From a virus: a stretch of 64,000 bases of DNA. Location of the stretch: IMG/VR virus record IMGVR_UViG_3300017763_000003; one strand, given 5' to 3'. Positions within the stretch are counted from its first letter, which is position 1; each line of letters opens with the position of its first letter. This document shows positions 1 to 12,256 of the stretch, piece by piece. A program made the translations under genes and the position numbers. The notes beneath the pieces are model-generated. The model saw only the letters and a list, made by a program, of their open reading frames with translations, did no database searches and was not told the origin of the DNA.

Positions 1-130
1 TGGTGAAAGCTACACATATTAGAAAATAAAGTAGCCACTTCACTGAGTTGCTTATTTCATAAGTTTAACTCCTCTATCTGAGAGTCATGCGTTCGGTTTT
101 GGTAGTTTCCGAATTAACAAAAAACTACCA
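1..130 (+). ncRNA. Candidate structured RNA (possibly 5'-truncated by the window) ending in an H-type pseudoknot
   Basis: Stems 3-7/39-43, 9-13/31-35, 45-55/59-71, 72-75/81-84; pseudoknot S1 91-96/109-114 and S2 100-108/122-130. Confidence 0.5.
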
Positions 131-147
131 CTTGACTAACTTCCAAT

Positions 148-462
148 ATGAAAGGATACACAATGGAAGAATTGGTTTTTGAAATGGAAAGTGGCTTGGT
201 TAATTATATCATAATTCTTACTTTTTCACTTTTATTTTTTATACTAGGATGGGCAATGCCAAGAGGTAGTGCCTTAAAAAGACTCCAAGGTAAAATCTTC
301 AAAAGGTTTTATAATTGGACAGGAGCAGTAATGGTTAAGTTCCATAATTTCTTCGCTGATGAAGAATTTTATTTGGAGCATGTATGGCAAGATACTAAGG
401 ACTATGTGCGTAAAAAATATGGATACGAAAAGAAAAAAACTAAAACTACGAAAAAGAAATAA
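148..462 (+). CDS. Hypothetical membrane protein
   Basis: One hydrophobic segment, Lys-rich C-terminus, TAATG coupling to the next gene. Confidence 0.75.
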   Translation: MKGYTMEELVFEMESGLVNYIIILTFSLLFFILGWAMPRGSALKRLQGKIFKRFYNWTGAVMVKFHNFFADEEFYLEHVWQDTKDYVRKKYGYEKKKTKTTKKK

Positions 463-1250
463 TGTTTAGACCACCATATCATGTAGAGTTGAAGGATGTT
501 CCATTCCCATTGACTGAAGCAGAACTTGCTAAACAGATAGCAAGGTATGATAAAGAAAGTGGCGACTGGGCAAAACGCAGAGAAGATTTAATACCTGACC
601 AATGGTACACTGATAAATCTTCATACTCATACGCAGCATATGGTTTCGTAGCAAATCTATGGATTAAACATTTTAACTTCAATCCTGAGTTTCTAAAATG
701 GTTAGATAGAAATATGATGGCACCTGCTTTGGTGGGTACTATATTTGTATCTCCTCCAGGATATTCACTCAGACCACACATAGATTATGTCGATTATAAT
801 ATCAATTATTATTGGCGATTAAACTTCCCTGTAAATTTAGATGAAAACGCAGATAAAAGTATGGCATTCTGGGATCCTCGTGACTGTAATATGGAACGCA
901 GGAATAAAATCAGACACCCAAAGATGCCATATACTGAAATAAATTTAATAGAGTTTGATGACGAAACTAGACCTAAAGTAAAGAAACACTTTGATACCCA
1001 GATGGGTAAATGCTCACTTATATGTGTGGGTGGACCTGACTGTGCTCATAGTATGATTTATGATGGCGAAAAAGAATCCTATACTATTTCTATTGACTTT
1101 AGAGATAAACGAACTGGTTCAAGGATACATGATTGGAAAGCGATAGAAAAAAGAATGGGACATTTATTTGTAAAAGATGACAAACCATCTCCTATCTCAG
1201 CATGGGTAAAAGAAGATGGTGAGTTTGGATGGAGTAGAGATATAACATGA
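462..1250 (+). CDS. Cupin/Fe(II)-2OG-type oxygenase-like protein
   Basis: PPGYSLRPHID (HxD), RLNFP, distal AHSM, TISIDF; paralogous to the next ORF. Confidence 0.6.
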   Translation: MFRPPYHVELKDVPFPLTEAELAKQIARYDKESGDWAKRREDLIPDQWYTDKSSYSYAAYGFVANLWIKHFNFNPEFLKWLDRNMMAPALVGTIFVSPPGYSLRPHIDYVDYNINYYWRLNFPVNLDENADKSMAFWDPRDCNMERRNKIRHPKMPYTEINLIEFDDETRPKVKKHFDTQMGKCSLICVGGPDCAHSMIYDGEKESYTISIDFRDKRTGSRIHDWKAIEKRMGHLFVKDDKPSPISAWVKEDGEFGWSRDIT

Positions 1251-2275
1251 AACACGAACCTTACTACATGTCGTTGAAGGATACACTTGAACGACCTATT
1301 ACTAACGAAGACCTACATCAAATATTAGCACCACTAAGAGAAAATCCAGCACGAGGTAATATATGTGTAAGGAATAGTTGGTTTCGTATTGAGATGATGA
1401 AACAATGGAGAGACATGATGCTTATGCCATATGGCTGTAGTATATTTCGTGCTCATCCATATTATCGTATGTCTCCCCACTGCGATTCTCCAGCAAGACC
1501 GAACTGGGGAAGAGTGACTTGGGCATTCGAAGAGGTAAGTCCTGGAATATATGAACCATGGCGACCTGATGAAGAAGAAACTTCTATCATGACATACTGG
1601 GATGCGAGTGAAGCTGAACAGTGGGACTCTGATATGTGTAATGTATCAGGCGATCCTGAAAAAGATTTAACTTATATTATACCAAGAGAAAGAATACTTC
1701 CTGGATATCAAGGCAATCTAAAAGAAGAATTAAGTTTTCAAATGTCATATCCTGGATTAATTAATGTGGGACAACCACACTCAGTATGGCATAACTCTCC
1801 TAAAACTAGAATCGCAATATCTATTGAATTTATGAATAGAAAAGGTGAGTTTGAAGGATGGGATAAATTAGCTAAAACTTTAGATCGATTCGGTTATGCT
1901 GATATGGAAACTGATAATAGAACAGTAAAATATGGGTCACGATTACATAATGGTTTATTTTCGTGCCTATATAATAAAGAGACTAATGAAGATGTTCCCG
2001 AAACTGTATTTGATGGAGAGCAACTAAAAGATAAATTAGAAAAACATCTAGGCACTAATGCTAAAGGTATGTCTTGGGATGAAGCAGAAGATGTTTATCT
2101 ATCAAATCGATTACTTGGTAGAGGACAAGAGCAAGGAAAGATGTTGAAGGAACAAGGACTAGGTTATGATGACTTCTTAGAAAAACCTGGAGTTCCTTTT
2201 AAATTAGTATTCGGTAATGTAATGCAAAGTCTAATAAACATAGAGGATGAGTACAGAAAAAAATATCCTAAATGA
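1247..2275 (+). CDS. Cupin/Fe(II)-2OG-type oxygenase-like protein with C-terminal extension
   Basis: MSPHCD (HxD), NVGQPHSVWHNSPKTRIAISI (distal His and Arg). Confidence 0.65.
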   Translation: MKHEPYYMSLKDTLERPITNEDLHQILAPLRENPARGNICVRNSWFRIEMMKQWRDMMLMPYGCSIFRAHPYYRMSPHCDSPARPNWGRVTWAFEEVSPGIYEPWRPDEEETSIMTYWDASEAEQWDSDMCNVSGDPEKDLTYIIPRERILPGYQGNLKEELSFQMSYPGLINVGQPHSVWHNSPKTRIAISIEFMNRKGEFEGWDKLAKTLDRFGYADMETDNRTVKYGSRLHNGLFSCLYNKETNEDVPETVFDGEQLKDKLEKHLGTNAKGMSWDEAEDVYLSNRLLGRGQEQGKMLKEQGLGYDDFLEKPGVPFKLVFGNVMQSLINIEDEYRKKYPK

Positions 2276-2553
2276 AAACATTTATAATTTTGACAGCACT
2301 GTTATGGTATGAAGGCATTGGTACAGTACAAACTGACTTTACCTCTATATCATTTTCTAGTCATGAAGAGTGTCAAGAATATGTGTTTAATAACAAAGTA
2401 GATCTCATAGATGGATTATTAGAAAAGCATCGTATGAAAAATGATAAAGTATTCGGTATGGTAGAACTTAGAAGTTTCGAGTTATTTTGCGAGACTAAGT
2501 ATATACTAGAGGAAGAAGATAAAGAAGAATCTAAATATTTAATGGAGTTATAA
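2272..2553 (+). CDS. Hypothetical exported protein
   Basis: N-terminal hydrophobic signal, two Cys, ATGA overlap. Confidence 0.7.
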   Translation: MKTFIILTALLWYEGIGTVQTDFTSISFSSHEECQEYVFNNKVDLIDGLLEKHRMKNDKVFGMVELRSFELFCETKYILEEEDKEESKYLMEL

Positions 2554-2554
2554 T

Positions 2555-3757
2555 ATGAAACCTGTGCATGTAGTTGGTTATGGTATGAGCGATGCTCTCG
2601 GCATCACTCCCGAAGAATGTTTCACAAAAATGCTAGACGAGAATGATTACTCTCGTGAAATCCCTGGCATGGCAAAACAAGTAGAAGAAATTTTCCACTT
2701 AGTAATTCATCGTGGTGCTATGCATGATGAAGATCGTATAGTTATGCCTGAAGGGTTTGACAAAAAGATGTGGCGAAGTATGACCAATGCTCAAAAGATG
2801 ATGAGTAGTACTACTGAGTCAGCTATGCAGATGGCTGGTATAGAACGCAGTCCTAAAGTAGCAACCCTTGCCAGTACAGTTTCAAATGATACTGAAGGAA
2901 TCGATGTGTACTTTGAATATATTAAGTACATGAAACGAGGTAATGCTCGTAGAGCAGTAAATAGGATTCCTGATATGGGATGTATGCATATTACATCTTA
3001 CTATGGCTTCAAAGGTTTATCAACTGCTACATTCGCATCTTGTGCTACTGGTATGGTCAATATAGATTATGCTATGAGATTAGTAGATGAGTATGACTAT
3101 GTTATCTGTACTGCTGGTGACTGTGCTAACTTCCCTATGGGTATTAAATACTTTGCTTGTTTAGGAGCATTAGCAAACTGGTCAATGCCCTTTGATGATA
3201 GACGACAAGGTTTCTTGATGGGCGATGGTGGAGCATGTATGATTTTACAATCAGAAGAAAAGATGAAAGAGTTTGGAAGTAAATCATATGCTAAATTACA
3301 CAAAGCAGGTATGGCAAGTGACGCAGTAGATATGGTAAACCCAGAAGGAACTGGTACTCGTACTTCTATGCAAGATGCTTTAAGTCATGCTGGTTTAGAT
3401 AAAGTTGATTATGTATGTACTCATGGTACAAGTACTATCGCTGGTGACCCAATCGAATATGAAGCAGTCACTGAAATTATGCCAGGAACTAAAATGTGGG
3501 CACCGAAAAGTAAAATCGGTCATACACTTGCAGCATCTGGTATTCTTGAAGGATGTTATGCTATTGAAAGTATGAGACAAGGCTGGGTTCCACATATTCA
3601 AAATTTAGAACAATCAAGTATAGATGTACATGGTACTCTAGTTCGTGAGAATGAAATGTACTCAAACCAACTTCGTACTCGTACGATGCTAAATAATTCG
3701 TTTGGCTTTGGTGGTAAATGTATGTCGCAAGTAATAGAGGTGAACTTAGATGACTGA
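2555..3757 (+). CDS. fabF: Beta-ketoacyl-ACP synthase (FabF/FabB-type ketosynthase)
   Basis: Catalytic Cys ASCATG, PFDDRRQGFLMGDG, THGTST, KSKIGHTLAASG, NSFGFGG; Cys-His-His triad intact. Confidence 0.9.
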   Translation: MKPVHVVGYGMSDALGITPEECFTKMLDENDYSREIPGMAKQVEEIFHLVIHRGAMHDEDRIVMPEGFDKKMWRSMTNAQKMMSSTTESAMQMAGIERSPKVATLASTVSNDTEGIDVYFEYIKYMKRGNARRAVNRIPDMGCMHITSYYGFKGLSTATFASCATGMVNIDYAMRLVDEYDYVICTAGDCANFPMGIKYFACLGALANWSMPFDDRRQGFLMGDGGACMILQSEEKMKEFGSKSYAKLHKAGMASDAVDMVNPEGTGTRTSMQDALSHAGLDKVDYVCTHGTSTIAGDPIEYEAVTEIMPGTKMWAPKSKIGHTLAASGILEGCYAIESMRQGWVPHIQNLEQSSIDVHGTLVRENEMYSNQLRTRTMLNNSFGFGGKCMSQVIEVNLDD

Positions 3758-4040
3758 AGAACAAATGGATATGTTTGGCGATCCTACTGATAAGAAAAGG
3801 ATATTGGAACTTGAAGCAGAAGTAAAAAACTTGAGACAGGCATACGATGTATTGGCTCAAGAATATGAGAAACTATCAGACCAAGTACCAACTGCAATGA
3901 AAGATATACGAACTGAACCACTTTACACAAACGAAGTGGTTAATGCTGAAACTGGACAACGAAGAAGAGTCCCCACTAGAAAACTGGCAGACTGGGAAGA
4001 AGCTGGTGTACCAAAGGAGCAAATACATGGCTGGGATTGA
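3750..4040 (+). CDS. Hypothetical coiled-coil protein
   Basis: SD GAGG, overlap-coupled ORF, heptad pattern. Confidence 0.7.
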   Translation: MTEEQMDMFGDPTDKKRILELEAEVKNLRQAYDVLAQEYEKLSDQVPTAMKDIRTEPLYTNEVVNAETGQRRRVPTRKLADWEEAGVPKEQIHGWD

Positions 4041-4446
4041 TAACATGGCTGGAATAAGTAAATTATTTGAAAGTAAAAAACCATTTGATATGGTAAAGGA
4101 ATGGATGGAAATAGCAGGTCAACAAGCACCATCTGAAGAACTTGCCGATACTGGTTTTAATCAACAAGCAGAACTATATGCTAATCTAATTGATGAAGAA
4201 TTTAATGAATTCATGGCAGCATATGGAATGAAAGATGAAGTCGAACAGCTTGATGCTGTATGCGACTTAATCTGGGTTGCTGCTGGATATGCTCACTCGA
4301 AAGGGTGGGATTTAACTAAAGCATTCGCAGAAGTTGGTCGTTCCAACTACTCAAAAACACCCTTCACAAAGGATGAATCTACAGGAAAAGTGACTAAAAG
4401 TAAGAATTTTTCACCACCTAATCTTAAAAAGTTTATAAGTAATTGA
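4027..4446 (+). CDS. MazG-like / all-alpha NTP pyrophosphohydrolase
   Basis: LIDEEFNEF...EQLDAVCDLIWV...EVGRSNYSK...GKVTK; start placed at the ATG after SD AAGGAG. Confidence 0.85.
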   Translation: MAGIDNMAGISKLFESKKPFDMVKEWMEIAGQQAPSEELADTGFNQQAELYANLIDEEFNEFMAAYGMKDEVEQLDAVCDLIWVAAGYAHSKGWDLTKAFAEVGRSNYSKTPFTKDESTGKVTKSKNFSPPNLKKFISN

Positions 4447-4516
4447 TTTTTAATAACTTTTTAATCTAAAAAAATAGACGATTTTACTTGACATTTGTCT
4501 AAAAATGGAGTAGAAT
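4436..4516 (+). promoter_or_regulatory. Sigma70-type early promoter with upstream IHF-consensus site
   Basis: TAAGTAATTGATT 4436-4448; TTGACA 4488-4493, 17 bp, TAGAAT 4511-4516. Confidence 0.85.
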
Positions 4517-4522
4517 TACTGT

Positions 4523-5047
4523 ATGATTAAAGATAATAAAATAATATATGTCGATATGGATGGTGTATTAGCCAACTTTGACGACTATTACTTCAGAAAT
4601 GGAAGGCACTCTTTTATATATGAAGAGTTCCGTGATGAAGTTATGCAGAATAAACTATTTACCAAACTTCCTAGAATGGTAAACATGGATGAATTGATGG
4701 ATTCTACTAGACAGATTGCTGAAAAGCATGGTTATGAAATCCAAATTTTATCTAGTGTTCATACATTATATGATGACCAGTTTGCTGAAAGTTGCAAACA
4801 AAAAAGGTTATGGTTGTTAGAAAATGGTTTGGGTGACTTGGTCACTAATTTCGTGAAAGGTAGAACTGAAAAAGGAACTTTCGGTAAAGATGGTGACATC
4901 TTAATTGATGACCAACTTACTTGTGTTCATTACTTTAACGATAATGGTGGTGTTGGTATCGGTCATAAAAATGTACTTGATACTCTCACTTTATTACAAA
5001 AGGTTATCGCCGATAGACATTTACAAGAGGTGGCAGTTGCCAGTTAA
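4523..5047 (+). CDS. HAD-family 5'(3')-deoxyribonucleotidase-like protein
   Basis: IYVDMDGVLANF, ILSS, K, ILIDD motifs. Confidence 0.85.
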   Translation: MIKDNKIIYVDMDGVLANFDDYYFRNGRHSFIYEEFRDEVMQNKLFTKLPRMVNMDELMDSTRQIAEKHGYEIQILSSVHTLYDDQFAESCKQKRLWLLENGLGDLVTNFVKGRTEKGTFGKDGDILIDDQLTCVHYFNDNGGVGIGHKNVLDTLTLLQKVIADRHLQEVAVAS

Positions 5048-5585
5048 AAAGCACGACGGAAATTTGTTTAAAGGCATATTTTCCCCAAGAATAAATCTCG
5101 CTGGTACTTATGCGAAGAATGCTCATATTGGGCAAAAGAGAAAGTACACTGGCGAGCCATACATCACACATCCTACAGCAGTTGCTGAATTATTAAGAAT
5201 TAATTACAAAGATACTACTGAGGATATGTACATGGCAGCATTATTGCATGATGTAGTTGAAGATACACCTGCATCACATGAAGAAATAGCACGATTCTTT
5301 GGCGACAAAGTTAGCGAACTGGTTAGAGGTTTGACTGATGTATCAAAGCCAGAAGATGGGAATCGTGCTACTAGAAAAGCAATGGATCGTGACCATCTTG
5401 CTCAAGGTAGTAAGGAAGTACAAACGATAAAAGTTTTTGACCTTATACATAATACTGAGTCTATAAAAGAACACGATCCTGAATTCTACAAAGTGTTCAA
5501 GTTAGAGAAACAAGATTTACTTAATGTGATGACTAAAGTAGATCCAGAAATTAAACAACTCGGATGGGAGAGTATAACCCCATAG
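5037..5585 (+). CDS. Stand-alone HD domain, SpoT/Mesh1-like (p)ppGpp-hydrolase family
   Basis: AHIGQKRKYTGEPYITHP...AALLHDVVEDT...IKVFDLIHN; TTG start after GAGGT is inferred. Confidence 0.85.
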   Translation: MPVKKHDGNLFKGIFSPRINLAGTYAKNAHIGQKRKYTGEPYITHPTAVAELLRINYKDTTEDMYMAALLHDVVEDTPASHEEIARFFGDKVSELVRGLTDVSKPEDGNRATRKAMDRDHLAQGSKEVQTIKVFDLIHNTESIKEHDPEFYKVFKLEKQDLLNVMTKVDPEIKQLGWESITP

Positions 5586-5591
5586 GATAAA

Positions 5592-6029
5592 ATGAGAGAA
5601 GGAATAACTGCTTTCCTAGTCGGAAGTATAGGATTGTTTTGGATATTGAACTTAGCATACGCCAACGCAGATGTCAAAGGATATACTGATGTTCATGGAT
5701 GCCAAGGTGAGTGTCTTGAAGAATACCATAATAAGTTTGGTACATTTACTGAGCAACTTGAAGCAAAGCGAGTAGCGATGCAATCAGAAACACCAGCTGA
5801 TAGAGGTGCTAAGAAATATGTTAATTGTAATATGTGTCATGGTATGAATGGCGAGGGTGGTATTGGTCCAAAATTATCTGGATCTACATCGATTGTTAAG
5901 ATGCTAGAGCAATATAAAGCTGGGGAAACTAGAGGTGCCCAGTCAGCATTAATGTGGGGACAGGCAGCAAACCTGTCAACTCAGGATATGGAAGACTTAC
6001 AGGCATATATTGATGGATTTGACATTTAA
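5592..6029 (+). CDS. Class I c-type cytochrome (c553/c4-like), exported or membrane-anchored
   Basis: N-terminal signal/TM, CNMCH haem motif, GPKLSG, axial Met in ALMWGQAANLS. Confidence 0.9.
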   Translation: MREGITAFLVGSIGLFWILNLAYANADVKGYTDVHGCQGECLEEYHNKFGTFTEQLEAKRVAMQSETPADRGAKKYVNCNMCHGMNGEGGIGPKLSGSTSIVKMLEQYKAGETRGAQSALMWGQAANLSTQDMEDLQAYIDGFDI

Positions 6030-6047
6030 GTTTTTATTAATTAGAAT
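6019..6047 (+). promoter_or_regulatory. Sigma70-type promoter
   Basis: TTGACA 6019-6024, 17 bp, TAGAAT 6042-6047. Confidence 0.8.
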
Positions 6048-6053
6048 TATAAC

Positions 6054-6215
6054 ATGATTATGACTATATTAGATAGTTTAATAGTTATCGGATTGATTAC
6101 TATTTGTGGTGCTATCGCTTGGGTAGATGTTGAAATGCGTCTAGATAAACGAAAGAAACGCAAAGAAGCTAGAAAACAATTTGAAGAATCTATTGATATA
6201 TCTACAGATGAATAG
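6054..6215 (+). CDS. Small membrane protein (53 aa, not in ORF track)
   Basis: MIMTILDSLIVIGLITICGAIAWVDVEMRLDKRKKRKEAR...; TM followed by a basic tail; directly after the promoter. Confidence 0.65.
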   Translation: MIMTILDSLIVIGLITICGAIAWVDVEMRLDKRKKRKEARKQFEESIDISTDE

Positions 6216-6223
6216 GTGAAACT

Positions 6224-6436
6224 ATGAGTATTGAAGAAATACAAGGATATCTTGTAATACTAACCCCATTGGCTATGGCGATAGTTGCTATGAGCATTTT
6301 TACATTACAAGATAAAAGGATAAAAACTTATAGACTTGGTGAGATCGTAAAAGATAAAAACGCACCACCAAAAAAACAGAAAGGTGTGTTTGATATGCAG
6401 AAAACTGCGTCTTACACGGAAGGAGATAATACATGA
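6224..6436 (+). CDS. Small membrane protein
   Basis: TM helix, SD AGGTG, ATGA overlap with the next gene. Confidence 0.65.
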   Translation: MSIEEIQGYLVILTPLAMAIVAMSIFTLQDKRIKTYRLGEIVKDKNAPPKKQKGVFDMQKTASYTEGDNT

Positions 6437-7005
6437 ATATCTTTGCATTACATCAGCATCCTGTGGTTGCTGCGAAACAACATTGTGACAAACATGTTGT
6501 TAAAATGATACTAGAAACTGCCCAACTACTTTCTACTGCCCATCGTATGCTTGATGGCGAACTAACTAAACGACCATCGGTATCAGGTAAAACAGAAACT
6601 AAGTATTGGCTCATGGAAAATAGTAATATGGAAAATGTACTTTATCGTGCTACCATGATGAACCATCCTTGTGCTATATGGGTACGAGAAACTGATGCTA
6701 ATTATATGTGGGCATACAATTTATTTACTGCACTCTGCGATGAATATACGCATCGCTATGGTAGAGTACACAAAACTGATACACTACTGCGTGAAGCATT
6801 GATGTTTACACCCATAGCTATTAAACGACAGGGTCTAACACCATTTCCTCAAGCGATGCCTGAGGATGTGAAACATAATGATAGCATAGTTGCTTATCGT
6901 CAATACTATATTAAATACAAAGCAGACTTCGCTAAATGGACTAAGAGGGATGTTCCTACATGGTACGATGAAGTACACGGAACAAATGCTTGTTATGCCA
7001 GTTAA
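6433..7005 (+). CDS. Pyrimidine-dimer DNA glycosylase / endonuclease V-like
   Basis: MNIF...HCDKHVVKMILETAQLLSTAH, NHPCAIW, QAMP, AYRQYY, WTKR. Confidence 0.85.
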   Translation: MNIFALHQHPVVAAKQHCDKHVVKMILETAQLLSTAHRMLDGELTKRPSVSGKTETKYWLMENSNMENVLYRATMMNHPCAIWVRETDANYMWAYNLFTALCDEYTHRYGRVHKTDTLLREALMFTPIAIKRQGLTPFPQAMPEDVKHNDSIVAYRQYYIKYKADFAKWTKRDVPTWYDEVHGTNACYAS

Positions 7006-7642
7006 ATTAATATCATACTCGAAAGGACAAAATGGAGATTTATTACAGGAAGTTGCATATTGCGCAAGAGTATCTAATCCATCGAACCAAGCGAATGAAG
7101 AAACTTCTGAAAAGCTACTCAAATATTTGATGAAGCATAAACACTGGTCACCATTTGAAATGGTATCAGTATGTTTAGAAATTAAAACTACAAGAGATAT
7201 CGCTAGACAAATATTGAGACATAGAAGTTTTTCTTTCCAGGAATTTAGTCAAAGATATGCTGAAGCAAATGATTACACTACTCGTAAAGCTAGAGAGCAA
7301 GATAAAAAGAACAGACAAAACTCTACAGAGTTTGAAGATCGTGAGATTGTAGAATGGTTTAATATGCAACAGATGAAACTTATTAGAGGAGTAAAGGAAT
7401 TATATACAGAAGCACTCGGCAAAGGTATAGCCAAAGAACAAGCTAGAGCCATATTGCCTGAGGGTATGACTGAAAGTACCCTATATATGAATGGAACATT
7501 GCGTTCATGGATGCATTATATAGATCTAAGAACTGCAAATGGTACTCAAAAAGAACACATGGATATAGCTAGTGAATGTGCTGATGCTATTGAAGAAGTT
7601 TTTCCTATGATACAGGACTTTAATCATGATGAAGAAAATTAG
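6968..7642 (+). CDS. thyX: Flavin-dependent thymidylate synthase
   Basis: ARVS, HWSPFE, RQILRHRSFSFQEFSQRY, EQARAILP, LRSWMHYIDLR; start may be 6986 or 6995. Confidence 0.95.
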   Translation: MKYTEQMLVMPVKLISYSKGQNGDLLQEVAYCARVSNPSNQANEETSEKLLKYLMKHKHWSPFEMVSVCLEIKTTRDIARQILRHRSFSFQEFSQRYAEANDYTTRKAREQDKKNRQNSTEFEDREIVEWFNMQQMKLIRGVKELYTEALGKGIAKEQARAILPEGMTESTLYMNGTLRSWMHYIDLRTANGTQKEHMDIASECADAIEEVFPMIQDFNHDEEN

Positions 7643-7769
7643 TGAACAAATAGAAATATGTAAATGCCATTGGAAAACTATTTTTGTTGGTAGTTTTATC
7701 ATGCACTTTATGTTTGACTGGCTCATATTTGGATTTGGGGTATTACTAGGGATGCATATAGGACATTAA
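7626..7769 (+). CDS. Small His/Cys-containing membrane peptide (47 aa, not in ORF track)
   Basis: MMKKISEQIEICKCHWKTIFVGSFIMHFMFDWLIFGFGVLLGMHIGH; SD AGGA; fills the thyX-AOX gap. Confidence 0.65.
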   Translation: MMKKISEQIEICKCHWKTIFVGSFIMHFMFDWLIFGFGVLLGMHIGH

Positions 7770-7773
7770 ATGA

Positions 7774-8349
7774 ATGGGGGAAATAATTAAAGATAAGTTT
7801 GCGAAGAGCATGACTATGTTCTTTCGTTTCATAGCCGATACTTTTTTTGCTAAAAGGTATGGGCATCGTGCAGTCGTATTAGAAACTGTTGCTGCAGTTC
7901 CTGGAATGGTTGCTGGTGTTTGGCTACATATGAAATCTCTTCGTAAGATGAAGAGTGGCTTGGGTCCAAAGATTCGCGAGATGATGGATGAAGCTGAGAA
8001 TGAAAGAATGCATCTAATGATTTTTATTGATATCGCAAAACCATCATGGTTAGAACGATACATAGTTTTATTTGCTCAGTTTATTTTTATTATTTTTTAT
8101 TTACTACTATATATTTTCTTTCCTAAAACTGCTCATCGTATGACACATTATTTTGAAGAGGAAGCAGTAAAAAGTTATACACAATATTTACATATGGTAG
8201 AGTCTGGACAAACTGAAAATGTCGATGCACCACAGATAGCGATAGATTATTACAAATTAAAAAAGAGTGCGAAACTAACAGATGTAATTAAAAAGGTAAG
8301 GGCAGATGAAGAAAAACACTCGCAAGTCAATAAAAGATATTCGGAGTAG
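7774..8349 (+). CDS. aox: Alternative oxidase (ubiquinol oxidase, AOX)
   Basis: RYGHRAVVLETVAAVPGMV, EAENERMHL, YFEEEAVKSYT, RADEEKH: diiron ligands and conserved Tyr present. Confidence 0.95.
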   Translation: MGEIIKDKFAKSMTMFFRFIADTFFAKRYGHRAVVLETVAAVPGMVAGVWLHMKSLRKMKSGLGPKIREMMDEAENERMHLMIFIDIAKPSWLERYIVLFAQFIFIIFYLLLYIFFPKTAHRMTHYFEEEAVKSYTQYLHMVESGQTENVDAPQIAIDYYKLKKSAKLTDVIKKVRADEEKHSQVNKRYSE

Positions 8350-8443
8350 AGACCCTGTTGCCAAAGAACTACGCACACCCAAGTATAGAAGTCAGGTTGT
8401 GCCTAATAAAAAGAAACACTTACCACCGATAGAAGAGTTATAA
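8306..8443 (+). CDS. Small basic peptide with weak ArfA-like pattern (45 aa, not in ORF track)
   Basis: MKKNTRKSIKDIRSRDPVAKELRTPKYRSQVVPNKKKHLPPIEEL; SD AAGGG; overlaps the AOX end. Confidence 0.55.
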   Translation: MKKNTRKSIKDIRSRDPVAKELRTPKYRSQVVPNKKKHLPPIEEL

Positions 8444-8446
8444 ATA
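8439..8446 (+). promoter_or_regulatory. T4-type late promoter
   Basis: TATAAATA, 5 nt before ATG 8452. Confidence 0.75.
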
Positions 8447-8451
8447 TAGTA

Positions 8452-9531
8452 ATGAAAATTATAAAGACTACCACACCCAAAGAAGTTCGTGATTTCGATG
8501 GTGAATATCCAAAAAAACTAGAACCAACTGATGTTGTCGAGATATTTCAGACTCCACTGACTGGCTCATATAACTGGGATTATACAGTACAAGATAATCG
8601 CATTCGTAAGTTGTATGAATTAGGCAAGGAGTTAAACTGGAATGTAGAGGTTGATGTTGATTGGTCGCCAGAGTTTGAAGGTATCACTGATGAAGAGTTT
8701 GAGTTTGAAGATAATCAATGGACTGAACATGAAATGTATAAAGGCTGGGATACAAAGAAACGAAAAGCATTTTTACATGACCAAAACGCATGGGCACTTA
8801 GTCAGTTTTTACATGGTGAGCAAGGTGCTTTACTTGTAGCAAGTCAGTTAGCATCCTGTGCTCCAACATTCAACGCAAAGTTGTATGCAGCAAGTCAAAC
8901 CTTTGACGAAGCAAGACATGTAGAAGCATTTAACAAATATTTACAGACAAGAATTAAAACGAGTTGGCCAATAGGAACTGGTCTGAAAACTTTACTAGAT
9001 AAAATACTTACTGACCCAAGATGGGATTTAAAGTTTATCGGAATGCAAGTAATTATTGAAGGACTCGCACTCGCAGCATTTAATGCTTCAAAAGAATCAA
9101 GTCGTGACCCAGTATATAAAGAGATGATTGGATTAATTATTAGAGATGAAGCTAGGCATGTGACTTTTGGTATTAATTATTTACATGAGTTTGTTAAAAC
9201 TTTATCAGAAGAAGAAGTATTAGATCGTGCTAAGTTTGCACTTGAAGCATGTACAGTATCAAGAAATAGATTAAGACCTTTTGAAGTATGGAAAAAATAT
9301 GGATTAGATTTAGTAGCAACTGAAGAATATTCAAAAGAAAATTTATTTCAAACACAGTTTCAAGAAGTATTGTTCAGTAGAATAATGCCTAACCTGAAAA
9401 AAATTGGATTACTTCCTGAAGAAGTTATTCCTGGATATGAAAAACTAGGAGTGCTGAAATACAGTGAAAGTGATAGTGATTATGAATTAGACTGGGATGA
9501 ACTCAGTAAACCTTTAAAGGAAGCAGTATAA
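8452..9531 (+). CDS. Ferritin-like diiron protein (AurF-like oxygenase family)
   Basis: FLHGEQGA, DEARH, IIEGLA, second DEARH; YNWDY N-terminal motif. Confidence 0.8.
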   Translation: MKIIKTTTPKEVRDFDGEYPKKLEPTDVVEIFQTPLTGSYNWDYTVQDNRIRKLYELGKELNWNVEVDVDWSPEFEGITDEEFEFEDNQWTEHEMYKGWDTKKRKAFLHDQNAWALSQFLHGEQGALLVASQLASCAPTFNAKLYAASQTFDEARHVEAFNKYLQTRIKTSWPIGTGLKTLLDKILTDPRWDLKFIGMQVIIEGLALAAFNASKESSRDPVYKEMIGLIIRDEARHVTFGINYLHEFVKTLSEEEVLDRAKFALEACTVSRNRLRPFEVWKKYGLDLVATEEYSKENLFQTQFQEVLFSRIMPNLKKIGLLPEEVIPGYEKLGVLKYSESDSDYELDWDELSKPLKEAV

Positions 9532-9532
9532 T

Positions 9533-9781
9533 ATGCCTTTATATAATGTAAAAAATAAAAAGACTGGCGAAGTAAAAGAATTATTTTGTAGTTATGATGA
9601 CAAAGTAAAGTATTTAGAAACCAATAAAGATTGGGAATCTATGATATCTGCACCAAATATCGGAGAAGCAGGTATCCTAGCAGGAACAGATGCTAGAAAA
9701 AAAGCAACAGGATTTAGAGATGTACTTGAAAGAGTAAGAACTAAAAATCCTGGAAGTAAGATAAACACAGAAGTATTTTAA
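9533..9781 (+). CDS. FmdB-like small protein (degenerate zinc ribbon)
   Basis: MPLYNVKNKKTGE...GFRDVLERV...PGS; usual position before phoH in T4-like phages. Confidence 0.65.
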   Translation: MPLYNVKNKKTGEVKELFCSYDDKVKYLETNKDWESMISAPNIGEAGILAGTDARKKATGFRDVLERVRTKNPGSKINTEVF

Positions 9782-9782
9782 T

Positions 9783-10538
9783 ATGCCCAGAGCGAAAAAA
9801 GCAGATGCTCCATCTGCTAAAGCAAAGTTGAAGATCGCCGATCTCAAACGAGTCGATCCTCTCAACGATAGTCAGAAAAAGTTTTTTGACTTCTATAATG
9901 ATAAAAGTAAACAAATCATTATGGCTCATGGTGTAGCTGGTACAGGTAAAACTTATATTGCGATGTATAAAGCATTAGAGTCTGTACTGAATAAAGAGTT
10001 TGAGAAAGTTTTGATTATTCGATCTGCTGTACAAAGTAGAGAGATTGGTCATTTGCCAGGAGATCTAGAAGAAAAGCTAGAACAATATCAACTGCCATAT
10101 AAACATATAGCATCGGCATTGTTCGCTAAGAAAGTAGATAATCTGGTTTATCCTGACCCATACGATAGGTTGATGACGCAACACAATTTAGATTTTGCTT
10201 CAACATCTTTCGTCAGGGGATTAACATTTGATGACACTGTAGTAATAGTGGACGAATGTCAAAATCTAAACTGGGAGGAACTTGACACAATTATTACAAG
10301 GGTGGGCGACCATTCTCGTATTGTGTTTTGTGGCGACTATCGCCAAACTGATTTAAGAAAGGGCACCGAAAGGGAAGGTCTTTTTAATTTCATGGAGATA
10401 GTAAGGCATATGAATAGTTATGCTCGTGTCGAGTTTACAGTAAACGACATCGTCAGAAGTGACTTAGTAAAAGAATATATCATTGCTAAGATTAAATCTG
10501 AAGATGCTAAACCTAAACAAACAAGGAGTAAACGATAA
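9783..10538 (+). CDS. phoH: PhoH-family ATPase
   Basis: GVAGTGKT, IGHLPG, VRGLTF, IVDECQN, GDYRQTD, DIVRS. Confidence 0.95.
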   Translation: MPRAKKADAPSAKAKLKIADLKRVDPLNDSQKKFFDFYNDKSKQIIMAHGVAGTGKTYIAMYKALESVLNKEFEKVLIIRSAVQSREIGHLPGDLEEKLEQYQLPYKHIASALFAKKVDNLVYPDPYDRLMTQHNLDFASTSFVRGLTFDDTVVIVDECQNLNWEELDTIITRVGDHSRIVFCGDYRQTDLRKGTEREGLFNFMEIVRHMNSYARVEFTVNDIVRSDLVKEYIIAKIKSEDAKPKQTRSKR

Positions 10539-10663
10539 TGTTAGATATTCTATTCTGGATTGCAGTTGGTGCTTTCATCGGCTGGAATTTTCCACAACCC
10601 TTTTGGGCGAGTTGGATTGAAACAACTGTAAAAGGTTGGCTTTCAAAAATTAATACAAAATAA
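10538..10663 (+). CDS. Small membrane protein (41 aa, not in ORF track)
   Basis: MLDILFWIAVGAFIGWNFPQPFWASWIETTVKGWLSKINTK; SD AAGGAG; TAATG coupling. Confidence 0.75.
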   Translation: MLDILFWIAVGAFIGWNFPQPFWASWIETTVKGWLSKINTK

Positions 10664-10678
10664 CTAAAAGGAGATATT

Positions 10679-10909
10679 ATGCAAAAAGTTATTGATTGGT
10701 TGAAATGTGTAGGAGCAAAATTGTTTCCTGTTCTTGATACAAACAAAGATGGTGTTCTTGATAAAGAAGACTTTAAGTATCTTGAAAAGAAAACTAAAGA
10801 CGAGCTCGAAGCACTTGGTCGTAAGATTGGTGTTGAACTAGACAAAAGACAAACCAAAGCAAAGTTAATTGCTGCAATTAAAAAAGCAAAAAAGAAATTA
10901 AAGGTGTAA
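10679..10909 (+). CDS. EF-hand plus Rho-N/HeH-like small protein
   Basis: DTNKDGVLDKED 12-residue loop; TKDELEALGRKIGVELDKRQTKAKLI. Confidence 0.7.
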   Translation: MQKVIDWLKCVGAKLFPVLDTNKDGVLDKEDFKYLEKKTKDELEALGRKIGVELDKRQTKAKLIAAIKKAKKKLKV

Positions 10910-11005
10910 GTGGAGCAGTAAATGGTAAACAACCTCTTCGTTTTCGTAAGAGGAATGCTATTCGCAGGAATGCGAAAGTTGTACCATTTCATCCCTGGCA
11001 CCTTT
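10900..11005 (+). ncRNA. Candidate structured RNA (three-way junction) upstream of the endolysin
   Basis: Stems 10900-07/10998-11005, 10920-26/10983-89, 10929-33/10978-82, 10934-38/10948-52, 10961-66/10971-76 with a GGAA tetraloop. Confidence 0.55.
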
Positions 11006-11035
11006 ATAAAGATTTTACAACAAAGGAGTAAATCA

Positions 11036-11482
11036 ATGTCATTTGACAGAGAGAAACTAAGAGAAGAACTCATTCGCGATGAAGGAGTTAAATTCGAAAT
11101 ATACAACGACCATCTCGGTTATCCTACATTTGGTATCGGACACCTCGTCACAGAAGATGACGAAGAACATGGTAAAGCTGTAGGAACTGCTGTATCTGAA
11201 GATCGTTGCTGGGAAGTATTCGATACTGATGTAGAAAAGTTCGTCACGGAAGTGAAGAAAGTATATCCTGATATCGAAAGCTATCCTGATACTGTACAGA
11301 GAGTCCTAATCAACATGTGTTTTAACATGGGAGCACCAAGACTTGGTAAGTTCAAAAACATGAAAAAAGCAGTTGAAGCAGGTGACTGGAAACAGGCAGC
11401 AATTGAAGGAAGAGATAGTCGTTGGCACAAACAGGTACCAAATCGTGCTGAAAGACTTATGGTTGCACTTGAAGAAGTATAA
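11036..11482 (+). CDS. e: T4-type lysozyme / endolysin (GH24)
   Basis: DEGVKFEIYNDHLGYPTFGIGHL (E-x8-D-x5-T), NMCFNMG, SRWHKQVPNRA; SD AAGGAG fixes the start at 11036. Confidence 0.9.
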   Translation: MSFDREKLREELIRDEGVKFEIYNDHLGYPTFGIGHLVTEDDEEHGKAVGTAVSEDRCWEVFDTDVEKFVTEVKKVYPDIESYPDTVQRVLINMCFNMGAPRLGKFKNMKKAVEAGDWKQAAIEGRDSRWHKQVPNRAERLMVALEEV

Positions 11483-11605
11483 GGATTTGCTTTTTAAGAA
11501 AGTAAAGACTATCATATACAAATATCGACGAAACCAGTCCAAGTGGGATGATAGATTTCATAAGGACAAAAACGGAAAGCCGATTGATATTAAGAAGTAA
11601 ATATT

Positions 11606-12256
11606 ATGTTTAATCATGTACCAATTGAAGTGGGTAAACTGAAGCAGGTAAATGCTGAAGGTGGGAGATATTATGAAACTCCCACTGGTGCTAAGTATCC
11701 TTCAGTGACATCTATTACTAGACTACAAAACATGGAATCTATCCAAGCATGGAAAGATAAAGTGGGTGAAGTAGAAGCTAGTAAAATATCTAGACGAGCA
11801 CTCGCTCGTGGTAATAAGATACATCACTTAGCTGAGAAGTATTTACTCAACGAGGGTGATTTATCTGACGATTTCAGCAAACAAGATTTCGGTCAGATGA
11901 TACCATATCTCGATAAAATTAATAACATTCACTGTTTAGAAACTCAATTATATTCAGACCATCTTGAAACTGCAGGTACTGTAGATTGTATAGCTGAATA
12001 TGAAGGGAAACTAACAGTAATTGACTTCAAGACCTCTGCTAAAATGAAGAAGAGGGAATGGGTCAAAGATTATTTTATGCAGTGTTCAGCTTATGCTGTC
12101 ATGTATGAAGAAAGGACTGGCACTCCTATTGAAAGAATGCTACTAATCATTAATGTTGAAGACCAAGGCATACAATTACTAGATGCTAAAAGGGATGACT
12201 ACATTGAGGATTTTTTAGATCTAAGAAAAACTTATAGAAAAATGAAGGAGAACTAA
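11606..12256 (+). CDS. PD-(D/E)XK (Cas4-like) exonuclease
   Basis: YPSVTS, RGNKIH, AGTVDCI, IDFKTS, YFMQCSAYA. Confidence 0.9.
   Translation: MFNHVPIEVGKLKQVNAEGGRYYETPTGAKYPSVTSITRLQNMESIQAWKDKVGEVEASKISRRALARGNKIHHLAEKYLLNEGDLSDDFSKQDFGQMIPYLDKINNIHCLETQLYSDHLETAGTVDCIAEYEGKLTVIDFKTSAKMKKREWVKDYFMQCSAYAVMYEERTGTPIERMLLIINVEDQGIQLLDAKRDDYIEDFLDLRKTYRKMKEN

Follow-up and report, generated by a model that had tools for sequence, protein, structure and literature searches.

The window analysed here, a 64,000-nucleotide stretch of viral DNA (IMG/VR record IMGVR_UViG_3300017763_000003), carries near its 5' end a gene for a FabF-like ketosynthase (KS) in the same tightly packed run as two paralogous oxygenase-like genes, which we call oxA and oxB. 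The interpretation that we favour, while holding it tentatively, is that an uncultured marine T4-like phage, a relative of the pelagimyophages, encodes in these genes a co-translated module for lipid tailoring, in which the KS and the oxygenases would act on acyl chains bound to the acyl carrier protein (ACP) of the host. As an enzyme, the KS adds one more member to a known type; the coupled oxygenase family, and the module that it makes up with the KS, represent a variation that is new. The observations on which we build are the structure of the genes, their intact active sites, the folds of the proteins, the clade structure of the KS and a linkage that recurs between lineages. The three central genes are:

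462..1250, + strand: oxA, 262 amino acids (aa), a protein of the Fe(II)/2-oxoglutarate (2OG)-oxygenase fold, a double-stranded β-helix.
1247..2275, + strand: oxB, 342 aa, a paralogue of oxA with a β-helix core (about residues 1-225) and a C-terminal extension of about 120 aa.
2555..3757, + strand: KS, 400 aa, a FabF-like elongating β-ketoacyl-ACP synthase with Cys163/His290/His323 (query numbering).

A reading made earlier from the sequence alone (hereafter the sequence-only reading) had described the KS as a full-length condensing enzyme with an intact Cys-His-His triad, and this description holds, as does the observation as a whole; the interpretation built on it is supported in part. Both Pfam domains score above the gathering score (PF00109, 75.6 bits; PF02801, 78.1 bits; cut-off 20.8), and the best match in the PDB is E. 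coli FabF (2e-35), with the Cys, the two His, Lys335 and the NSFGFGG stretch all in alignment. Scores against more specific models stay below their cut-offs, namely 183.5 bits for the fabF equivalog TIGR03150 (cut-off 493.75), 181.3 bits for NF005589 (cut-off 387) and 137 bits for the polyketide KS model NF005490 (cut-off 445), with the FabF models scoring higher than the polyketide one (183 vs 137). Neither the window nor any of the first 83 KS loci holds more than one KS match, and the second KS of a type II polyketide pair (KS-alpha and chain-length factor) is thus absent from them.

We then aligned 34 phage KS, that of the window included, with E. coli FabF, FabB and three other bacterial KS. 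Eighteen catalytic and gating positions of FabF are invariant in all 34 phage sequences, among them (in FabF numbering) C163, H303, H340, K335, T305, T307, D311, E314, E349 and N396, as well as F400, G401-G402, D265, P272 and F202; G399 is kept in 33 of the 34. To judge from these sequences, the conservation looks like purifying selection on an active, decarboxylating and elongating KS. The phage enzymes resemble E. coli FabF (1KAS/2GFW) in the two-domain thiolase fold (by Pfam), in the triad and Lys335, in Thr305/307, Asp311/Glu314 and Phe400, in the GFGG gating loop and in the Asp265/Pro272 loop, but differ from it in overall identity (about 28% or less) and in two marks of their clade, a Ser or Thr in place of Ile108 in the acyl pocket and, in most members, a Cys in place of Asn404 beside the gating loop. 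The KS gene also does not lie in a fab operon with acpP, fabD or fabG.

In the tree, all phage KS form a single long-branched clade (support 100, stem branch length 0.91) that stands apart from all seven cellular KS sampled, a thin sample made up of E. coli FabF and FabB and the enzymes of Pseudomonas, Enterococcus, Acinetobacter, Xanthomonas and Saccharibacteria. The KS is thus not within the sampled host FabF, a placement that the sequence-only reading had named, in combination with the lack of a conserved phage neighbourhood, as one that would count against it. A word-indexed search returned 1420 KS relatives at an E value of 1e-10 or better, and the best 120 of these are 44-99% identical, about 390 aa long, almost all metagenomic and, in several cases, derived from contigs of 120-330 kb; in IMG/VR, a KS relative is encoded on 279 stretches. 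The clade is absent from the 50,697 deposited phage records, where the best matches reach about 33% identity at most, mostly resemble bacterial FabF/FabB and come from 'UNVERIFIED' or assembly-derived records. Signature peptides of the clade were found at 14 loci when one genome per species was scanned (185,579 species), 11 of them in metagenome-assembled genomes (MAGs) labelled Deinococcales. One such locus, on a 112-kb contig of a 'Deinococcales bacterium' MAG (L088:5992-7164), encodes a clade KS of 44% identity, and its neighbours, a major facilitator superfamily transporter, a subtilase and three proteins with phage-tail-collar domains, form a cellular context. We considered whether the 'Deinococcales' contigs could be misbinned T4-like phage and rejected this, since the genomes give no match to the gp6 baseplate protein and the KS neighbours are cellular. 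Because these MAGs carry a clade KS in a cellular context, the clade is mostly, not wholly, viral, and the loci suggest that KS genes have been exchanged between phage and bacteria, in either direction. Taken together, the tree and the searches place the KS in a widespread, mostly viral sister branch of the FabF family found in aquatic T4-like phages, with phage KS genes forming a fully conserved clade of their own.

OxA and oxB are paralogues whose similarity is weak but significant (23% identity, E=3e-6). Each has an H-x-D...H metal triad, H106-x-D108...H196 in oxA and H78-x-D80...H178 in oxB, and the two share the motifs PY..LKD, IF...P.Y....H.D, M.[FY]WD, HS and ISI[DE]F that the sequence-only reading had listed; a further element given there as P.T..L has in fact the spacing P.T...L. 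Neither protein matches any family in Pfam, PHROGs or NCBIfam. A profile built from oxA, oxB and their paralogues in a freshwater phage (the cupin family in what follows) was searched against 1.84 billion proteins, giving 914 representative clusters at 50% identity, most of them of 170-200 aa; the ten clusters that we looked up consist of metagenomic, unnamed proteins. The H-x-D and distal His columns are invariant across 35-36 aligned family members, and an Arg follows the distal His by 9-11 residues in nearly all of them (one has Lys), this being Arg188 in oxB.

The nearest Pfam-labelled cluster in the ESM Atlas has PF05118 in 27% of its members, and a paralogue located 2 kb downstream of a freshwater KS matches PF05118 with 24.4 bits (cut-off 22.6). 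PF05118 is the Asp/Asn β-hydroxylase (AspH) family, to which the lipid hydroxylases LpxO and OlsC also belong. The cupin family shares with AspH the double-stranded β-helix, the placement of the metal ligands and the Arg some 10 residues past the distal His (R735 in AspH), but unlike AspH, LpxO and OlsC its members are mostly of about 190 aa, soluble, and viral or metagenomic, and in oxA a Ser replaces the Arg. Homologues of oxB were recovered by word search only at 71% identity or more; tblastn with oxB, a small representative and two freshwater cupins gave no match in the 50,697 deposited phage records, 35 family members gave none in PHROGs, and a search of IMG/VR with two single cupin representatives returned nothing. 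The family to which oxA and oxB belong is thus Pfam-less, distantly AspH-like and so far seen in viral and metagenomic sequences only. Small Fe/2OG-fold proteins are also present in multiple copies in marine T4-like cyanophages as 2OG-Fe(II) oxygenases or phytanoyl-CoA dioxygenases; the cyanophage 'phytanoyl-CoA dioxygenase' models are weak structural matches to the cupin family but have no detectable sequence similarity to it.

The predicted structures point to the Fe(II)/2OG oxygenase superfamily. The AlphaFold2 model of oxA has a pLDDT of 80 and a pTM of 0.82, and in a structural search (VIA) its best 50 chains are nearly all Fe(II)/2OG oxygenases with Z values of 9.3-6.5, including proline 3-hydroxylase (9.3), AsqJ (8.2), AspH and FIH (7.6 each), the CurA halogenase (7.3) and PhyH (6.6); Foldseek returned FIH and ThoJ at about 5e-4. 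As these Z values are middling, they indicate membership of the superfamily and nothing finer. The core of oxB is predicted with confidence and is matched by Foldseek to 2OG oxygenases and other cupins, and its C-terminal 120 or so residues have a pLDDT below 50 and no confident fold. Among viral models, the best structural matches are uncharacterised proteins of about 185 aa from uncultured freshwater Caudovirales. The earlier claim that the two upstream genes encode paralogous H-x-D...H oxygenase-like proteins is therefore borne out by both identity and fold. OxB, whose 2OG-type site is complete, is very probably an Fe(II)/2OG oxygenase. OxA is predicted to bind a metal, but may use 2OG differently, may not use it, or may act as a partner subunit; another residue might also replace its missing 2OG-binding Arg. 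A halogenase reading was rejected, as the carboxylate ligand (H-x-D) is kept.

How regularly do the two families occur together? OxA, oxB and KS are part of an unbroken + strand gene run (148-4446) in which neighbouring stops and starts overlap or lie 1 nt apart, and the four tightly packed open reading frames (ORFs) of the sequence-only reading were all recovered (462-1250, 1247-2275, 2272-2553 and 2555-3757). The remaining features of the run are:

148..462, + strand: orf148, 104 aa, the first gene of the run; a single transmembrane helix is predicted, and the tail is rich in Lys.
2272..2553, + strand: sm93, 93 aa, containing two Cys and, at its N-terminus, a short hydrophobic stretch.
2531..2537, + strand: CTAAATA box, 24 nt before the KS start, a candidate late-promoter core.
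3750..4040, + strand: p96, 96 aa, coiled-coil-like, its start overlapping the KS stop by 8 nt.
3943..4446, + strand: MazG-like pyrophosphohydrolase (from family searches), the last gene of the run.

Seven marine IMG/VR contigs whose KS are 88-91% identical to that of the window keep the order orf148-oxA-oxB-(sm93)-KS-p96, with orf148 directly before oxA (66-74% identity) and p96 after KS (43-56% identity) in all seven. Only sm93 varies: copies of 50% identity are present in L001, L002 and L007, and the gene is absent from L003-L006, i.e. four of the seven, indicating that it is dispensable. The idea that sm93 is a small exported protein finds little support, its N-terminal stretch reaching a Kyte-Doolittle (KD) hydrophobicity of 1.22; for comparison, residues 16-34 of orf148 reach 2.24 (averaged over 19 residues). 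Pfam and PHROG searches gave no match for orf148 and no significant family match for p96.

To look beyond close relatives, the KS of the first 83 loci and the window were clustered at 80% identity, giving 32 groups. Cupin genes abut the KS in five of these, in arrays of 2-6 genes (two in the group of the window, 3-6 in the freshwater group L008-L024, five in L057, five in L026 and four in L027), and the stop of the last cupin gene often overlaps the KS start. Within the 64-kb window oxA and oxB are the only family members. When whole records are considered, the KS-adjacent array holds both cupin copies in each of two marine relatives, three of the five in a complete 145-kb freshwater genome, and every copy present in the L026, L027 and L057 records. 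True family members were recovered at 28 loci (16 viral, 12 metagenomic; a sample dominated by a few related lineages) in a scan with the peptide motif PSLVN[VI]GxPH. At 25 of these loci a KS lies directly beside the cupin array, and the remaining three are cut off by the end of the fetched DNA before any KS could be reached. In the KS tree the cupin-linked enzymes fall in two separate subclades, and an approximately unbiased (AU) test rejects their union in one clade (p=1.6e-4), the group having been defined by an independent trait and the test run after inspection of the tree. Thus, the linkage was either kept while being lost elsewhere or formed twice. The co-occurrence proposed by the sequence-only reading accordingly holds for the seven marine relatives and for four further KS groups, but not for the KS clade at large, as set out below.

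The genes further upstream add to a lipid theme. The window starts just after the position of the desaturase, and this region was therefore read in relatives (KS 89-91% identity), where the order in front of orf148 is a FabI-type enoyl-ACP reductase, two small proteins, an AcpS-type phosphopantetheinyl transferase and a fatty-acid desaturase. A desaturase is encoded in 12 of 30 KS-bearing records, and all cupin-linked lineages have one upstream on the strand that they share with the array. AcpS was found among the 30 records only in the two long marine relatives, and a PP-binding domain in these two and one other. Both long marine records also encode a very acidic 323-aa protein with an internal ACP domain (about residues 158-238, motif DSLD), flanked by Lys/Arg-rich proteins and located, in the relative G001, about 34 kb from the KS (L017:1210-2181, - strand); this protein and AcpS co-occur only in the marine lineage of the window. 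No MaoC, FabA/Z, PlsC-type acyltransferase or FabD was found in five relatives, including the complete freshwater genome (G001, G002, G003, G007 and G008), and tblastn of the window detected no ACP, FabD, FabG, FabH, FabI or AcpS. The sequence-only reading, which had seen no ACP in the window, was right on this point, and the wider search that it called for yields, in relatives, an ACP-domain protein and AcpS but no PlsC-type acyltransferase, FabA/Z or FabD. The desaturase in all cupin-linked lineages, together with FabI, AcpS and the ACP-domain protein in close relatives, strengthens the lipid theme.

In the mechanism that we propose, the KS would most likely condense host malonyl-ACP with acyl-ACP, adding two-carbon units. 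Since ACP, FabD, FabG, FabH, FabI and AcpS are missing from the window, and FabD and FabA/Z from the relatives, the KS needs the malonyl-ACP, reductase and dehydratase of the host; in a phage lineage without FabD, FabG and FabZ it must both feed into and draw on the host type II fatty-acid synthase. Together with the upstream desaturase and, in this lineage, FabI, both of which would shape unsaturation and flux, the KS would change how long and how unsaturated the acyl chains of the membrane are while infection proceeds. The soluble oxA and oxB proteins would oxidise, and most likely hydroxylate, the acyl chain or acyl-carrier intermediate handled by the KS. Only the elongation step has direct evidence, in the KS sequence itself; LpxO, OlsC and PhyH hydroxylate acyl chains, and it is from these relatives of the family, by analogy, and from the linkage that we infer the oxygenase substrate. 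Substrates, the direction of the lipid effect and any physical coupling between KS and oxygenases are likewise inferred.

Several results weigh against a lipid-tailoring module. Firstly, the oxygenases are not clearly lipid hydroxylases: neither oxA nor oxB matches PF05118 at E 0.01 or better, only 2 of 35 family relatives do so (best 1.3e-5), the fold searches return oxygenases of amino acids, proteins and natural products no less than acyl hydroxylases, and oxA has Ser206 at the position of the conserved Arg, all of its orthologues having Ser or Thr. Secondly, the linkage has limits. In 27 of the 32 KS groups no cupin match was found within the fetched flanks (up to 8 kb on each side), and a second motif (PS.VQVGxPHN) identified five viral contigs that carry other cupin subfamilies without a KS next to them; in two of these a KS lies further off, at about 27 kb, and one 200-kb record has none. 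The two with a distant KS (L157 and L160, IMG/VR records of 229 and 164 kb) each carry three small cupin genes of another subfamily and a 412-aa KS (239 bits against the clade profile). Since these subfamilies lie 27 kb from a KS or occur without one, the two families are not obligate partners; T4-like gene order is moreover conserved anyway, and the cupin-linked groups represent few lineages. Thirdly, FabI, AcpS and the desaturase were verified in relatives, the source genome having been read within the window only, and the complete freshwater genome has neither ACP nor AcpS.

The main rival, which we consider unlikely although it fares best among the alternatives, is that these genes are neighbours and not partners. 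The KS alone would then supplement or redirect host elongation, and oxA and oxB would hydroxylate proteins (at Asp or Asn, at Pro, or on the ribosome), nucleic acids or small metabolites, the genes merely sharing a hyperplastic early/middle region. That most KS groups have no nearby cupins and that other cupin subfamilies lie away from any KS both fit this view, as does the presence of unrelated MazG, nucleotidase and HD hydrolase genes in the same run. The closest named sequence relatives of oxA and oxB are moreover Asp/Asn β-hydroxylases, their fold relatives proline hydroxylase, FIH and AspH act on amino acids or proteins, and an Asp/Asn β-hydroxylase is core to the pelagimyophages irrespective of fabF (PMC7029224). 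Against chance proximity stand a translational coupling to KS that is kept in two KS subclades, the clustering at KS of nearly all cupin copies in the cupin-linked genomes, and the position of the arrays found by motif, each of the 25 open to judgement being next to a KS.

A variant that stays closer to the tailoring module, and to which we give somewhat less credence than to mere neighbourhood, centres on the oxygenases. Members of a family of small Fe(II) oxygenases, drawn in as tandem copies with translational coupling to a KS of mostly viral descent, would make hydroxy- or oxo-acyl chains on host or phage ACP, the Arg-less oxA being a specialised partner subunit or a non-2OG oxygenase. Such an oxygenated-acyl pathway, if real, would represent a novel form of lipid tailoring by viruses, through which membranes, signals or parts of the virion could be changed in aquatic bacteria that are abundant.

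Two lesser rivals depart further from membrane lipids. Fe/2OG enzymes tailor carrier-bound intermediates in polyketide and non-ribosomal pathways, and the KS might similarly build a thioester, either a short β-ketoacyl or an extended acyl one, on the ACP-domain protein of the phage once AcpS, also from the phage, has activated that protein; tailoring by the oxygenases would then yield a signal, a toxin-like lipid or a virion acyl group. AcpS and the 323-aa DSLD protein do co-occur in the lineage of the window, and only there, the fold matches include the carrier-dependent CurA halogenase and SyrB2, and tandem diversified oxygenases are typical of tailoring pathways. We nevertheless regard this pathway as improbable: the ACP-domain gene and the KS are some 34 kb apart, cupin-KS arrays persist in the freshwater and L026/L027 lineages, which have neither ACP nor AcpS, no chain-length factor, acyltransferase, thioesterase or FabD was found, and the KS fits FabF models better than polyketide ones. 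Least probable of all is that the KS throttles host lipid synthesis or drains malonyl-ACP, for although over-production of a FabF-type enzyme reportedly blocks fatty-acid synthesis in E. coli (an effect ascribed to work by Subrahmanyam and Cronan in 1998), the KS is the sole elongation-cycle enzyme in most phage lineages carrying it and its fully conserved active site would allow malonyl-ACP decarboxylation, the desaturase in 12 of 30 records and FabI in the lineage of the window fit the making of modified lipids better.

The lipid-tailoring reading has to be set beside what is already described. The window derives from a T4-like myovirus, as shown by its gp32 single-stranded DNA-binding protein, baseplate gp5, gp6, gp25-like and gp48-like proteins and a tape-measure-like protein; gp6 shares 44% identity with its counterpart in Pelagibacter phage HTVC008M and 43% with the one in Methylophilales phage Melnitz. 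Megablast of positions 1-12000 against deposited phage genomes gave zero matches at the DNA level, and for the first 47 bases IMG/VR yielded no exact counterpart. The gene lists of a 2020 survey by Zaragoza-Solas et al. give fabF, speH and a stearoyl-CoA desaturase for the freshwater pelagimyophages (group PMP-D) alone, and an Asp/Asn β-hydroxylase as core to pelagimyophages (PMC7029224); fabF is also listed in virome surveys (PMC10653327). Our freshwater group L008-L024, whose KS is 57% identical to that of the window, matches these phages, in that a T4-like genome of 145 kb has the genes for KS, desaturase and S-adenosylmethionine (AdoMet) decarboxylase (speH/speD) next to one another. To put the KS itself forward as a candidate for an undescribed system, as the sequence-only reading did, was therefore an overstatement, fabF and a desaturase having already been listed in that survey.

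The survey (PMC7029224) gives gene lists only, with no mention of cupin arrays between desaturase and fabF, and it calls the lipid genes freshwater-unique, whereas here a marine lineage has them and adds FabI, AcpS and the ACP-domain protein. In the literature searched, which did not extend to all journals, we found no paper that studies a viral KS, defines a viral KS clade or notes oxygenase arrays. In several lineages, then, the KS is hard-wired to arrays of uncharacterised oxygenases and to a desaturase. If lipid tailoring is indeed their function, phages that infect very abundant marine and freshwater bacteria would remodel the acyl chains of the membrane as infection proceeds, with effects on lipid biomarkers and on carbon flow, and the genes would provide a compact, expressible set of new acyl-modifying enzymes.

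The CTAAATA box in front of the KS, put forward by the sequence-only reading as a late-promoter box, is present at 2531-2537. CTAAATA is no more frequent in the window than expected by chance (20 copies vs 19.4), but 10 of the 20 copies lie 70 nt or less upstream of a start on the same strand, against a background of 3.9%, and the motif is probably the late-promoter core of this phage. Sites include 14101, 17819, 27341, 36823, 53762 and 60868, and many of the copies placed upstream of genes precede structural genes. The box before the KS is not conserved in the four relatives checked (L001, L003, L005 and L007), and a conserved, KS-specific late promoter was rejected for this reason.

Other genes near the KS deserve brief mention. 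In the freshwater pelagimyophage-like genome (L013:9303-12295) the KS is followed by genes for AdoMet decarboxylase, a 161-aa protein, a 360-aa protein and a PF05118 Asp/Asn hydroxylase-like protein; the 360-aa protein ends in GGVHC, reminiscent of guanidino-group-modifying enzymes, and the set may be polyamine-related. R2lox proteins are fatty-acid ligand binders, and at 8452-9531 the window encodes a 359-aa protein with a weak match to R2-like ligand-binding oxidase models (E=8e-7, far under the cut-off), which is conserved in L005 and absent from L001, L002 and L007. The survey mentioned above states that mazG is absent from pelagimyophages (PMC7029224); the window has a MazG-like gene in a phage whose structural genes are nearest to theirs, and the host or group assignment may differ. 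Finally, an HD-domain (SpoT-like) ORF called from its first TTG (4905-5585) overlaps the 5'-nucleotidase gene at 4523-5047 by about 140 nt, and its true start is probably further downstream.

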